DNA of 64,000 bases from Bdellovibrionota bacterium FG-1. Lineage in GTDB: Bacteria; Bdellovibrionota; UBA1018. Where the stretch lies: positions 1 through 64,000 of the forward strand of contig JBBCAW010000004.1 in the NCBI GenBank assembly GCA_051382295.1, written 5' to 3'. The notes beneath the pieces were generated by a model. That model was not told the DNA's origin. It worked only from the letters and a program-made list of their open reading frames with translations, and made no database searches. Each line of letters starts with the position of its first letter. Position 1 is the stretch's first letter. Both the position numbers and the translations under genes were made by a program. Positions 55,923-60,119 of this stretch are shown here, one piece after another.

Positions 55923-55952
55923 TAGGCCCGAAAGCCGGCAAAATTTTCTCCG

Positions 55953-55979
55953 TTAAGAACCTCCTTCCCACGCCGATAG
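55953..55979 (+). promoter_or_regulatory. sigma28 (FliA)-like promoter
   Basis: TTAA-N15-GCCGATAG. Confidence 0.65.
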
Positions 55980-56031
55980 GTGTTTTGTAGGTCGAATTCA
56001 CACCAAACAAATGATTCCAGGAGGGATGAAC

Positions 56032-56226
56032 ATGACAGAACGCACAATCACCAAGAAAAATGGCGAACAAAACGTAAAAGTTCTCTATCAAAAGATGGGG
56101 GATCGTTGGTTTGCCTTTTCGATTGTCGGCGGCGAAGTGTTCATGGGCTCTATTACCCAAGAAGAGATTGATCGTCTCGAGTTAGGACACCCGAAGGAGA
56201 CTTTTGCTCTCAATGGAAATTCATGA
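56032..56226 (+). CDS. Small hypothetical protein (64 aa)
   Basis: AGGAGG RBS at 56019-56024, ATG 56032. Beta-rich core VLYQKMGDRWFAFSIVGGEVFMG. Confidence 0.8.
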   Translation: MTERTITKKNGEQNVKVLYQKMGDRWFAFSIVGGEVFMGSITQEEIDRLELGHPKETFALNGNS

Positions 56227-56387
56227 GTCATTGTAATTCTTCACCTAAAAAACCCTTAACCCCGCCTTTACCAAATCCCGAGATGAAGACCCATCTCGGG
56301 ATTTTGCGTCAAAAGATTGTCGATCTAGTCGAAAAAAGCCCAGAAAAAGCCGCCAAAATACTATCTTATTGGATTAAAACTCGATAA
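56223..56387 (+). CDS. 54-aa microprotein resembling the FliF C-terminal FliG-binding segment (not in ORF track)
   Basis: ATGA overlap with the upstream gene. Reads MSHCNSSPKKPLTPPLPNPEMKTHLGILRQKIVDLVEKSPEKAAKILSYWIKTR. Confidence 0.55.
   Translation: MSHCNSSPKKPLTPPLPNPEMKTHLGILRQKIVDLVEKSPEKAAKILSYWIKTR
56273..56305 (+). terminator. Perfect 13-bp hairpin with short T tract (terminator/attenuator) inside the microprotein ORF
   Basis: aaatcccgagatg-aagacc-catctcgggattt-t. Confidence 0.65.
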
Positions 56388-56420: not shown

Positions 56421-56684
56421 ATGGCGGTCCATCTTTATGCCCCACTCAATACTCGCTATATCCCGATTCTCTTTACCGGGATGTTTGCGCTTTTTTTAGC
56501 CGCACAATTTGTTCATGCCGACGAGGAGGAGGAGGCGACTGCGCCTTTTGCCAGTGCACCTTCTGCATGGGTCGATCGGCGCCCTGGTTTCTCGCCTATC
56601 ACTTACGCTGATACCGGTTATGACTCGGCTGAGGACCGCGCCCCCTTGGGGCCGCCCACTGATCCTCAGCTCGATTCACAGTAA
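56421..56684 (+). CDS. Small exported acidic hypothetical protein
   Basis: AAGGAG RBS, signal-like segment ending VHA, acidic/Pro-rich tail. Confidence 0.65.
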   Translation: MAVHLYAPLNTRYIPILFTGMFALFLAAQFVHADEEEEATAPFASAPSAWVDRRPGFSPITYADTGYDSAEDRAPLGPPTDPQLDSQ

Positions 56685-56702: not shown

Positions 56703-57176
56703 TTAAAGGTAAAAGACACTCAGATCGCCACGATCTTTGTGCGCGTGCTCTGAATACGATTTCAGAAATCGGACAAACTGCTGATAAGCCGCGTAAGATT
56801 GGGTTGCCGTATCCACAAGACAGCCAAATCGCACGTATCTACCGTTGTGCTCAATGCACGGCCGCGAATTTTGGATTTTGACACGAATCTCTAAATAAGT
56901 GTCCTGACTAAAGTAGACCCGCAGAGGCATGTCTTTTGAGTCTTTCGGCCAAGGTCGTTCAGCATCGTAGGGGACCTGAAACGAGCAGCCTTCTTCGCTC
57001 AAATCAATCAGCTCAATCGCGCACATCGATGTATTTCCAACCACTGAGTAGACACTCAGCAATTGCTTGAAGAAAATGCGCTCCGTGCTACGCCGCTTTT
57101 CTTCGAGCTTTTGAGCCCGTACTTCACTAAAATCAATCACATCCGTAGTATTTCCAGTCCGTTGGGGCATGCTCAT
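56703..57176 (-). CDS. PilZ-domain protein
   Basis: RxxxR (RSTER) and DxSxxG (DLSEEG). GGAGG RBS before ATG 57176. Confidence 0.85.
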   Translation of the reverse strand: MSMPQRTGNTTDVIDFSEVRAQKLEEKRRSTERIFFKQLLSVYSVVGNTSMCAIELIDLSEEGCSFQVPYDAERPWPKDSKDMPLRVYFSQDTYLEIRVKIQNSRPCIEHNGRYVRFGCLVDTATQSYAAYQQFVRFLKSYSEHAHKDRGDLSVFYL

Positions 57177-57190
57177 ATCCTCCAAGGGAC

Positions 57191-57217
57191 GTATCGGAAG
57201 CAAAACGAAGACCTAAA
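57191..57217 (-). promoter_or_regulatory. sigma28 (FliA)-like promoter
   Basis: TTTA-N15-TCCGATAC on the minus strand just upstream of the RBS. Confidence 0.5.
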
Positions 57218-57252
57218 TAAGAATGATTTGCCGAGCTAAATTTGCCGCCTGG

Positions 57253-57660
57253 TCATCCCTGGACGATTTGACCAACGTCGGCAACCTGATCGAGCATTTG
57301 AATAAAGGCTTTAAAGCCCTCAGAGGCTTTGTCTTGCCGCACGATTTCAACACCTACGCGTCGGACCGGACCGGTGGTTTCGGCCCGTACAATCCGCACG
57401 GACAAAGGCAAAAAGAGCGATTGATTCAAATAAAACTGGATTTCAAGGTTTTCACTCTCCTTGAGAGGAAAATTTGCCGCATCCTCCCCCTCTGTATCCA
57501 GGTCAAAACTCAGGCCCTGTTCACTGACATTATGGACCTCAAGACGATGAATGCCTTTTTGTGGAACAACGACAAACAGCGAAAAAGTGCGCAAAATAGG
57601 ACGCCGATTGGAGCGGCGGCGCTCGGCTCCTCCGCCTGGACGATTTTTCTGAGAATTCAT
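57253..57660 (-). CDS. Stand-alone PilZ-domain protein
   Basis: ERRRSNRR and NVSEQG motifs. 4-nt overlap with the upstream gene. Confidence 0.85.
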   Translation of the reverse strand: MNSQKNRPGGGAERRRSNRRPILRTFSLFVVVPQKGIHRLEVHNVSEQGLSFDLDTEGEDAANFPLKESENLEIQFYLNQSLFLPLSVRIVRAETTGPVRRVGVEIVRQDKASEGFKAFIQMLDQVADVGQIVQG

Positions 57661-59219
57661 TGAATGGTCTCCTCTTTGCGTGGCATCCCGTTGGGGGTGG
57701 GAGCAAGCTTTTCATTGGTTTCGAGCTTATTCTTCAACACGCTCAAGGCGGTTTGCGCCCCTGAGACCGTCGTCCCCAGTTGAATATCGAGGGCCCGCAG
57801 GTCGGCTTTGCCTGAAAAAAACGTGTCGTGAAGAGCATGAACCGCCTCGACGGCCAGGGCCGCCTGCCGAGTCAAATCATAAAGCTCGCCATAAAAATAT
57901 TCAGTTTGAAGGATCTGCGGCGTCCATTTCTCATAACTGGCTTTGAGCTGTGTTTGGAGTTCAATCCATTGATGCGTAAACCCGCCCCAGCCCTTACGAG
58001 CGGCGGGCGATATTCGGCCATTTTTACTGCCGGCCCGCCATTGAGCGAATTTTTCAACATCGTTGGCCAGCTGGCCTTCCAGCGTAGTCGCAAATTGCTT
58101 GATCTCAGTCAATTCGGTCGTCGCTTTTGCATGAAGTTTGTCGTGATACTCTTTGAGTCGAGAAAGATAGATGCCGTCTTTGCTGCCACCCAAAAATACA
58201 GCTTTTGAGACCAGGATCTTTAGCCCCTTGGGAAGATTTGCGGGAACTTTGGCAATGACGGGGGGGAGCTTGCTCAACACGGCCTGGGTACTTGGGGGTT
58301 GTTGCGCAGCCTCAGTGATGTAGATGATATATTCGCCGCGAGGCAGTGGCTTGCCATCGGCGGCGCGCACTGCGGCAGTTTTTCCTAGTTTTTTTGTGAT
58401 CGTTGCTTGAACTTTGGTACTCAATGAAGGCTGGTTGAGGAGCGTGTCAGGAATCCCTTCGACCCACACATCGATCAAAGTTCCATCGGGAAGGTTTGTG
58501 GCAAGATAAAACGAAGGCGCCAAAATATCGGCGGTTGATAAGGCGACGGCCAGTTTTGGTCCGGCCGTCTCAAGCTGAGCCGAAGCGACGTTTCTCAGGT
58601 TTTGATAATCCTCAGTCGTCACATCTTCCAACATGGGTAGGGGTGATATCCATTGACTCAAAGAAGGATATCGTTCGACCAAGCTCAGAAGTTGAGGCTG
58701 GGTAAACTGAGAAAAAGTTTGGCCGACCGCACGAATGGACGGGGAGCGCAAGAAGGAGTCAAAGGTTCCGGCAAAAAATAGGGCCGTGATCCCCGCCAAA
58801 AGAGAAACAAAGACCCCGAATTTGACCCAATTGAAGGGTTGACTGGCTTGAGAATCTTTGGCCTGTGGAAGCTCTGAAACCTCAAGGGTTCTAGTCTTTT
58901 CAATAGCCGGCTCCTCCTGAAAGGGGATCAATGAAGGCTCGAGCGTGGGGGTCACCGTGAATATCGGCTCTGCTGGCACCGCTGGCGCAACCTCCGCAGC
59001 CGGGGTCAGAGGGGAAGAAGGAGGAGGAGGAGCAAGGATGGCCCCGAACTCCGTAACCTCGGTCATTGGCTTCCAGTCAGCCATCCCCTCAGCCCAAACA
59101 TAGTTTGAAGGCGCAATTTGACTCTGGGCGATCTTGGTTTGGATCTCCGCGAGCGAAAAAGGTCCCTCGTGGTGGTCCGTCAGATAGATAAACCACTTTT
59201 TTTCGTTGAAGCCGTCCAT
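57657..59219 (-). CDS. GYF_2 (DUF4339) domain membrane protein
   Basis: WFIY...HEGPFS...YVWAEGMADWKP, Pro-rich linker, one TM segment, large C-terminal region. ATG 59219. Confidence 0.85.
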   Translation of the reverse strand: MDGFNEKKWFIYLTDHHEGPFSLAEIQTKIAQSQIAPSNYVWAEGMADWKPMTEVTEFGAILAPPPPSSPLTPAAEVAPAVPAEPIFTVTPTLEPSLIPFQEEPAIEKTRTLEVSELPQAKDSQASQPFNWVKFGVFVSLLAGITALFFAGTFDSFLRSPSIRAVGQTFSQFTQPQLLSLVERYPSLSQWISPLPMLEDVTTEDYQNLRNVASAQLETAGPKLAVALSTADILAPSFYLATNLPDGTLIDVWVEGIPDTLLNQPSLSTKVQATITKKLGKTAAVRAADGKPLPRGEYIIYITEAAQQPPSTQAVLSKLPPVIAKVPANLPKGLKILVSKAVFLGGSKDGIYLSRLKEYHDKLHAKATTELTEIKQFATTLEGQLANDVEKFAQWRAGSKNGRISPAARKGWGGFTHQWIELQTQLKASYEKWTPQILQTEYFYGELYDLTRQAALAVEAVHALHDTFFSGKADLRALDIQLGTTVSGAQTALSVLKNKLETNEKLAPTPNGMPRKEETIQ

Positions 59220-59252
59220 TTTGATGATTTTCCAGTTAAAATAATAAGTGAA

Positions 59253-60119
59253 ATGTCTCAACGAAGCAAATATTGCCTGATTGGAATTCCGGACCACCAA
59301 GGAGTACTTCACGTGGGGGGACGTATTGGCTCAGCCCAAGGCCCCCAGGCCGTCCGAAAGATCTTGGCCCGCATGATCGGAAAAGCCGGCTTAGCTGACC
59401 GGATTTGGGACGCCGGTGACGTCCAAGGTCTGTCGTCGGACGTTGCGGCCAACCATCGTTTGGCGGCTGACCAGATTCGGGATCTTCACCGTTCGGTCCC
59501 CGGCACGGTCAGCGTCGTCATAGGCGGCGGTCACGATCACAGCTTTTCGCAGCTACTCGGAATCTCGGAAGGCATGCGTCGGACCAAGGGCGCCCAGCGC
59601 AAACTGCGCTTAGGATGTATCAACATCGACCCGCACTTAGATGTGCGCAAACCGGCACCCATTCCGACCAGCGGCTCCCCCTTTTATTTAGCGATTGAGT
59701 CGGGGGTCCTGGATCCTTCGCGATTGATTGAGTTTGGAATTCAAGCTCACTGCAACGGGCCCGCTCTTTGGGCTTACGCTCAGAAAAAGAAGATCAAGAT
59801 CATCCCTTTTGAAAAACTCAGGACAAATGCAGTCGCGATATTCAAAAAGCAACTCACTCAACTCTGTGCTTGTTGCGACGTTGTCGTGGTGAGCTTGGAT
59901 TTAGACTCTGCGGCCGAAGCCTTTGCCCCGGGTGTCTCGGCGCCTCAAACTGAGGGCTTCAGCTCGAGCGAACTATTAGATATGGTCGAAATATCGGCCC
60001 GTACGGCCAAAGTCGCGTCACTCGGAATCTTTGAGCTCAACCCCGTTCACGATATCGCAGACCGGACCGCGCGGTTAGCGGCGACGTTAGCTTGGCATTT
60101 TTTGGAGAAAATACGTTAA
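59253..60119 (+). CDS. hutG: Arginase-family ureohydrolase, formimidoylglutamase-like
   Basis: GRIGSAQGP, GGGHD, NIDPHLD, SGSPF, SLDLD, PGVSAP, ELNP. ATG 59253. Confidence 0.8.
   Translation: MSQRSKYCLIGIPDHQGVLHVGGRIGSAQGPQAVRKILARMIGKAGLADRIWDAGDVQGLSSDVAANHRLAADQIRDLHRSVPGTVSVVIGGGHDHSFSQLLGISEGMRRTKGAQRKLRLGCINIDPHLDVRKPAPIPTSGSPFYLAIESGVLDPSRLIEFGIQAHCNGPALWAYAQKKKIKIIPFEKLRTNAVAIFKKQLTQLCACCDVVVVSLDLDSAAEAFAPGVSAPQTEGFSSSELLDMVEISARTAKVASLGIFELNPVHDIADRTARLAATLAWHFLEKIR

Follow-up and report, generated by a model that had tools for sequence, protein, structure and literature searches.

A free-standing gene for a FliF-tail homolog within a sigma-28-type unit of Bdellovibrionota bacterium FG-1

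The analysis presented here identifies, in a 64,000-nucleotide stretch of the genome of Bdellovibrionota bacterium FG-1 (hereafter the window), a 54-aa open reading frame, ORF2, that is, as judged by profile comparison, homologous to the C-terminal FliG-binding tail of FliF. The pattern of substitution among its relatives marks ORF2 as a conserved protein-coding gene under purifying selection in its core; it matches no curated family, and is a real, conserved and unnamed gene for which a specific, testable mechanism may be inferred. Binding of ORF2 to FliG's N-terminal domain (FliG-N), whatever the outcome (decoy, chaperone, clutch or disassembly taken together), is probable. We favor, at a little short of even confidence, a model in which ORF2 would act as a decoy, binding free FliG-N in place of FliF and blocking further motors once sigma-28 is active. 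The features of the locus are the following, with positions counted in the window.

55937..55949, plus strand: near-palindromic element, GG[C/A]AAA...TTT[T/C]CC-like, directly 5' of the -35 box; conserved
55953..55979, plus strand: sigma-28 (FliA)-type promoter, boxes TTAAG at 55953-55957 and GCCGATAG at 55972-55979
56020..56026, plus strand: ORF1 ribosome-binding site, GGAGG conserved in relatives; strong, -10.8 kcal/mol
56032..56226, plus strand: ORF1, 64 aa; member of an unnamed family, modeled as a beta-meander with a helix; its translation drives that of ORF2 through coupling
56223..56387, plus strand: ORF2, 54 aa, free-standing FliF-tail homolog; ATGA overlap with ORF1
56273..56304, plus strand: perfect 13-bp RNA hairpin with a 6-nt loop, inside ORF2; ends 35 nt before the Pro codon
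56298..56375, plus strand: conserved core of ORF2, 26 codons; helix, Pro 56340, K-A-A, helix, Trp 56370
56703..57170, minus strand: PilZ gene 1, 155 aa (ATG 57170), Pfam PilZ; convergent, outside the ORF1-ORF2 transcript
57191..57232, minus strand: promoter of PilZ gene 1 with upstream element; core 16.5, upstream element 15.9
57253..57660, minus strand: PilZ gene 2, 135 aa, Pfam PilZ; within 57/81 near loci

The original prediction, made from the letters of the DNA, proposed a 64-aa frame followed by an ATGA-coupled 54-aa frame whose ending mimics the FliF tail, and both frames and that ending were found at these coordinates. Alignment of an ORF2 profile to 28 FliF tails gave an hhalign probability of 97.7% (E 2.5e-12), and a tblastn search of ORF2 against its own genome returned one other significant place, the end of FliF on contig C1 (E 1.6e-4), so that the proposed likeness held both against FliF C-termini and in FliF being the sole other significant match of the genome. 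When a core profile from which this copy had been left out was run over 86,373 genome segments, the top rank went to ORF2 and the next to the FliF tail (E 3.8e-5); the third-best segment had E 0.22, and the look-alike EHPQ segment of FliG-M scored -9.8 bits. Further tail-like matches in the genome, considered as mimics, turned out to be transposase segments. ORF2 and the FliF tail share a hydrophobic face, the Pro, the Lys and the Trp position by position, and the structural model of ORF2 consists of a helix (19-38), a hinge and a second helix (40-53) at a pLDDT of 83. Against solved structures the ORF2 profile weakly matched the 24 C-terminal residues of FliF 8z5s (E = 1) and wider ORF2 profiles gave none, and a Foldseek search with the two-helix model found no match at E 0.001 or better, from which neither novelty of the fold nor a difference can be concluded. 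ORF2 is not FliF itself, having 54 aa as against about 560 aa with two transmembrane segments and ring-building domains; unlike FliF, it lacks a membrane anchor and ring-building domains and has a gene and promoter of its own. The genuine fliF of this genome lies on contig C1, and there is no linkage between ORF2 and the fliF-fliG operon.

The tail of FliF has been described as co-folding with FliG-N into one domain (PMC6079021 and PMC8956890, citing PDB 5TDY and 5WUJ), and ORF2 shares with this complex a helix-hinge-helix arrangement, in its case predicted, the Pro, the K-A-A and the Trp. Identity is 38% among the mimics themselves, 38% between mimic and FliF tail, and 78% among FliF tails, so the mimics evolve much faster than FliF; the N-terminal linker of ORF2 is likewise variable compared with the FliF tail, and many distant mimics carry a 3-residue hinge insertion that FliF does not have. 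The shortness of the core (26 residues), its 38% identity to FliF tails, the rapid divergence and the hinge insertion count against the decoy model. The rapid divergence would also suit a weaker, displaceable partner, and ORF2 might then serve as a chaperone or place-holder under which FliG-N stays folded and FliG is stored, to be freed for the next round of progeny motors when FliF takes its place or ClpXP removes it. Isolated FliG-N was unstable in simulations without the FliF tail (PMC8956890), and a degron-like C-terminus of many relatives could provide the route of release. However, the sigma-28-type timing falls after basal-body assembly and not with fliG, the gene lies apart from the fliF-fliG operon, and many flagellated families are without ORF2; we regard a chaperone, the main rival of the decoy, as unlikely.

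The degron-like end consists of basic residues followed by a C-terminal Ala, Gly, Ser or Val, and occurs in 59 of the 77 near ORF2 copies, compared with 58 of 2065 control ORFs; it is found neither in the ORF2 of this genome nor in most copies of family f22, which counts against the decoy model. It resembles the MuA- and ssrA-type ClpX signals, as tabulated in PMC8138137, in that basic residues are likewise followed by Ala or Gly in those 59 copies. In contrast to these degrons, the end is absent from the present ORF2, and degradation of the relatives is a prediction from sequence. As the local FliF proteins end similarly (the same kind of C-terminus in 20 of 28), the degron-like end may have been inherited from FliF.

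That ORF2 is a gene is argued by its relatives. An ORF2 homolog lies directly 3' of ORF1 in 77 of the 81 near loci, of which two others stop at a contig edge and two are without it; these loci are the non-redundant remainder of 35 ORF1 loci pooled with 71 from a genome scan, the kinship of the latter not being given. The ORF2 profile was built from 33 near loci, and 44 of the remaining 46 were positive. The start of ORF2 overlaps or abuts the stop of ORF1, at -1 in 25 loci and at -11 in 15, and in this genome no separate ribosome site serves ORF2 (-3.3). Core statistics were taken from 72 ungapped 26-codon cores, five gapped copies being set aside, and here the Pro was kept in 69, the Lys in 68 and the Trp in 69. 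Over these cores pN was 0.42 and pS 0.76, and of 2556 pairs, which are not independent, 2519 had the lower value for pN; ORF2 of this genome, compared with its relatives, gave pN 0.36 and pS 0.81, with pN below pS in 71/71; alternative frames of the core contained stops in 46/72 and 40/72. Conservation of the peptide, on which the original prediction depended, was therefore borne out, as was its description as unannotated, in that a Logan assembly is the sole source of the exact 54-aa sequence, and NCBI has that of the 64-aa ORF1. ORF2 has no Pfam or NCBIfam match, and family libraries searched with 35 members gave scattered single weak matches, with none recurring between members. A database search with ORF2 returned 232 small proteins; among the 120 matches listed, the named homologs are hypothetical proteins, one automatic label excepted. 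Homologs are present in the cultured predators Bacteriovorax stolpii (DOM21_17485) and Bacteriovorax sp. HI3 (BHI3_03630). PMC6445934 and PMC12827227 give background, the HI3 locus tag being absent from the passages of PMC12827227.

Among 40 far loci, a chosen sample of more distant ORF1 loci, ORF2 lies behind ORF1 in 28, namely in 24/25 of family f22, 3/3 of f13 and 1/1 of f2, with none in f16 (0/9), f14 (0/1) or f17 (0/1). In 60 further genomes, mostly picked for lacking the pair, the sole clear free-standing match was in G206, together with three weak short-frame matches (E 0.003 to 0.05). No copy of ORF2 was detectable in the flagellated families f16 (0/9 loci), f18, f21, f23 and f24. One genome, G266, has ORF2, flagellins, FliM, FlhA and a displaced fliG, and FliF was not found in it, possibly owing to an assembly gap. 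Both observations count against the decoy model. Free-standing FliF-tail genes appear in many predatory-type bacteria and are widespread within part of the Bdellovibrionota.

ORF1, the first gene of the unit, belongs to a family of 368 clusters and is carried by 35 of the 41 genomes of relatives; its profile matches 128 of 251 phylum genomes, including nearly all of its own order, 6/6 in f13, 56/57 in f22 and 13/14 in f16, with zero matches among these 251 genomes in f18, f21, f23 and f24, in which FliF is mostly present. Its model has a pLDDT of 71.6. ORF1 has no Pfam or NCBIfam match, low scores only (0.76) in the protein atlas, and, in a fold search, a best Z of 4.2 with no Foldseek match, which again establishes neither novelty of the fold nor a difference. 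In one locus (L160 of G174) two ORF1 copies stand 10 kb apart, with a FliF-tail gene behind one only. In three genomes, G086, G042 and G043 (L176, L177, L186), ORF1 is kept and FliF, FliG, flagellin and FliM were not found, two of the three carrying a shortened FlhA-family match. The persistence of ORF1 in genomes without flagella implies that the unit is not purely flagellar, a point against the decoy model. These three genomes have no ORF2, an absence that agrees with the model but proves little, since flagellated f16 genomes are without ORF2 too.

Survival of ORF1 without flagella bears on a rival explanation, in which ORF2 would be a descendant or lookalike of the FliF tail that binds another partner, such as ORF1, a PilZ protein, a FliG-like fragment or a membrane protein. 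Tight coupling to ORF1 is in line with this, as is a natural-looking ORF1-ORF2 fusion (P0150, 1 of 153 ORF1-like proteins), and so are extra FliG-like genes in this genome and a FliG-N-only gene in G266. However, only one cluster, from contigs shorter than 1 kb, shows the fusion, this genome has one FliG-N domain and a second was not found in it, and conservation falls on the residues shared with FliF, partly tracking a Trp swap between FliF and FliG. A search for longer fused ORF1 forms gave one match, which is not fused to ORF2. A partner other than FliG-N is, on this evidence, rather improbable.

The swap in question concerns family f22, in which the Trp of the FliF tail is replaced in 19/19 (Met in 17, Ile in 2), and FliG carries a Trp after its P-I/V motif in 16/16 distinct pairs, as against 0/24 other pairs, 23 of which have the FliF Trp. 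These pairs represent 40 rows of 75 loci, 8 being duplicates and 27 missed by the pattern; 20 of the 27, all of this bacterium's own order, have the same Trp/non-Trp state as the other non-f22 pairs. The change in f22 is an apparent compensatory swap between FliF and FliG. The mimic Trp is present in 73/77 near copies, 3/3 of f13 and 8/24 of f22, and the 16 f22 mimics without it have Met (13) or Phe, Ile or Tyr (3), so that constraint on the mimic Trp is relaxed in precisely the family in which the exchange between FliF and FliG took place. The f22 mimic residue states are scattered on the FliG tree, and the eight f22 mimics that keep the Trp count against the decoy model. The partly followed swap is no more than suggestive of a FliG pocket shared by the mimic and the FliF tail, being one lineage event in which the residue contact is presumed.

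With regard to expression, ORF1 and ORF2 form a sigma-28-type unit, in that the promoter boxes are present and dependence on FliA is predicted. The FliA-like promoter that had been proposed was found at its boxes, is conserved in relatives, and is the top site genome-wide, scoring 21.2 with a runner-up at 20.7 in a weight matrix made from relatives only. Both boxes score at least 9/12 in 64/81 near loci, compared with 5/78 control segments, and are found in 22/27 far loci with a slightly looser pattern. This genome encodes FliA, as well as FlhF and ClpX. Across its six flagellin genes the promoter-type site is strong in one, moderate in two and weak in three; the strong one, flagellin C3, has boxes and spacing identical to those of the ORF2 unit, and a strong site at only 1/6 flagellin genes counts against the decoy model. 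In Bdellovibrio bacteriovorus, of 140 attack-phase promoters 92 are reported to carry TTAAG-N16-CCGATA, a set that includes many non-flagellar ones, and FliA is reported to drive swimming-phase genes (PMC3627812); the spacing of the ORF2-unit promoter equals this published consensus minus one base. Since many Bdellovibrio promoters of this kind are non-flagellar, the promoter type would indicate swimming-phase timing and not by itself a flagellar job.

The element directly upstream of the -35 box was present in 65 of the 77 relatives' promoters that fed the weight matrix, and recurs in the promoter of the adjacent PilZ gene. Its occurrence at a subset of sigma-28-type promoters (G000 C18:82844, C38:18165 and C3:116743, and window positions 57220-57232) suggests that it may mark a co-activator and a small sub-regulon. 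The member on C18 precedes a 78-aa Cys-containing ORF. The element was also considered as a sigma-54 site and rejected, its spacing being unfit when set against the sigma-54 consensus.

PilZ proteins such as YcgR brake motors, and YcgR and EpsE are FliG-binding brakes or clutches whose targets are assembled motors and which do not copy any motor subunit. ORF2 is comparable to these small or accessory rotor-acting proteins, and PilZ genes adjoin its unit; it differs from them in having neither a PilZ nor a glycosyltransferase domain. The original prediction placed two PilZ genes immediately downstream on the other strand; both are there, but an 87-codon ORF (56421-56684) lies between. It is preceded by a ribosome site, its N-terminus is hydrophobic over a stretch, and it has no homolog in the 80 other near loci. 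Beyond the PilZ genes, a GYF_2-domain membrane protein gene (57657-59312) and an arginase-family gene (59118-60119) are neighbors in 40/81 and 24/81 near loci, respectively. PilZ gene 1, which has the same promoter type, is linked in 68/81 near loci, in four arrangements, as might be expected if ORF2, together with co-regulated PilZ proteins, were a clutch or disassembly factor that pries FliG off assembled MS-rings, for example at prey entry. However, this linkage is found in 0/40 far loci, and an assembled ring of 34 co-folded FliF-FliG units (PMC11528121) would be hard for a monomeric peptide to displace. Expression in swimming cells, if FliA acts here as it does in Bdellovibrio (PMC3627812, as above), makes a clutch less likely than a block on new assembly, and a clutch or disassembly role is very unlikely overall.

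Several other rotor-like genes were noted in the same genomes, and these lineages seem to keep several loose rotor pieces. Genes of ~148 aa with the FliG C-terminal part only occur in G000 (C141:13758-14201, L061 1387-1830, and C86, L062 1390-1839), and G266 has two further genes resembling them. G266 also carries a 114-codon FliG-N-only frame (L244 1750-2091, minus strand, on C1), the mirror image of the free FliF tail, and its fliG sits outside any flagellar cluster. FliF-FliG-fusion-like proteins of ~600 aa are encoded in G000 (C107, L059 1147-2979, minus strand, and the ends of C55 and C62, L251 and L252) and in G266 (L247 200-2005); each starts with a hydrophobic N-terminal stretch, has a transmembrane-like one further on and a helix pair resembling the FliF tail, and carries a FliG-like C-terminal region, and the G266 gene is followed by MotA-like and MotB-like genes, the labels being read from sequence. 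These proteins could possibly be parts of a non-flagellar rotary motor. Near-identical contig ends occur twice in G000 (C55/C62 and C126/C104), which fits the 5% contamination figure of the assembly.

The hairpin inside ORF2 had been put forward as a perfect 13-bp stem with a T tract that might act as an attenuator and that buries an alternative ATG at 56283. The stem is as described and is unusual, hairpins this long and perfect numbering 15 in the 4.44-Mb genome, with a fold z of -2.97. The T tract did not survive inspection; it is four T, three of them within the stem, which is below a five-base U tract, and the run is also explained by the Ile-Leu codons of the ORF2 helix. The ATG does lie in the stem, but it has no ribosome site (-1.8), so that an alternative start is unsupported, and it was rejected as a candidate, an ATG 35-60 nt into ORF2 being found in 2 of the 29 loci listed. 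The hairpin was not called by a terminator scan and has no Rfam match, and its reading as a dispersed repeat was rejected, as no second copy exists in the genome. Among relatives its sequence is not conserved. Structured linkers (z below -2 against synonymous-codon controls) are nevertheless present in 30/72 loci, compared with 8/72 and 10/72 in control segments, and in 23 of these 30 the hairpin stops 35-50 nt 5' of the Pro codon, a range partly set by the search window; in far loci such a hairpin was found in 6/27. In six relatives picked for strong, alignable hairpins, pairing was 93.5% and three pairs had changed on both sides, with 0/500 shuffles for covariation and 78/500 for pair count. 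It is plausible from these comparisons that the hairpin is a selected RNA element in part of the family. The recurrence of the hairpin is what stands of the attenuator proposal, which is otherwise doubtful, as the position-equivalent hairpins mostly lack a U tract (five or more T in 1/30), and a pause, or a barrier to decay or RNA processing, is more likely than an intrinsic terminator. A plain ORF1 terminator, with ORF2 not made at least in this genome, would fit the unusual perfection of the hairpin, the four T at its end, and the lack here of the C-terminal tail of most relatives. However, the codons of the motif lie 3' of the hairpin, and purifying selection acts on them in this genome as well; the negative scan together with the scarcity of U tracts in relatives further speaks against it, leaving this explanation highly improbable.

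Taken together, these data allow the construction of a model for the decoy. Upon activation of sigma-28, the coupled ORF1-ORF2 unit would be expressed, and the free tail would occupy the FliG-N pocket, outcompeting nascent FliF for unassembled FliG. A finished motor would be left alone by the free tail, and no second motor would start. The dose of ORF2 may be kept low by the internal hairpin and by translation that depends on coupling, there being no separate ribosome site, and in most relatives the basic-plus-Ala/Gly C-terminus could allow ClpXP to degrade the decoy ahead of the following assembly round. Extended to a feedback loop, the model proposes that part of the Bdellovibrionota duplicated the half of the FliF-FliG split domain that binds FliG, and that once the flagellum is finished this protease-cleared decoy caps all remaining FliG and holds the cell to one motor until the decoy is destroyed; in this extension, which we advance only tentatively as a possibility, ORF1 would be a partner or handler of ORF2, and the in-gene hairpin would set their ratio.

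Single-domain dominant-negative microProteins, known mostly from plants and animals, titrate a partner by means of a lone interaction module. In ORF2, by contrast, the module is one of the two halves into which a structural domain of a bacterial nanomachine is split, and dominance of ORF2 is predicted. FliG is reported to promote MS-ring formation in a polar flagellate (PMC10941966). The FlhF-FliG checkpoint of polar flagellates is the closer comparison, likewise controlling motor initiation via unassembled FliG; FlhF binds FliG, which in this bound state keeps its engagement with FliF but is barred from FliM/FliN (PMC11236974 and PMC12826062). In contrast, FlhF is a large GTPase, and the predicted place of ORF2 is the very site that FliF uses. 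No free FliF tail or FliG decoy was found in the open-access literature searched.

ORF1 and ORF2 both represent unnamed families with hundreds of members, and the copies in cultured Bacteriovorax make the function of ORF2 directly testable. If the decoy model is true, a natural peptide that blocks the joint between MS-ring and C-ring would be a tool for studies of motor assembly. The counting and timing of motors in polar flagellates have so far been explained mainly by FlhF and FlhG, and subunit mimicry at the first assembly step would, if true, be a different lever from FlhF/FlhG.
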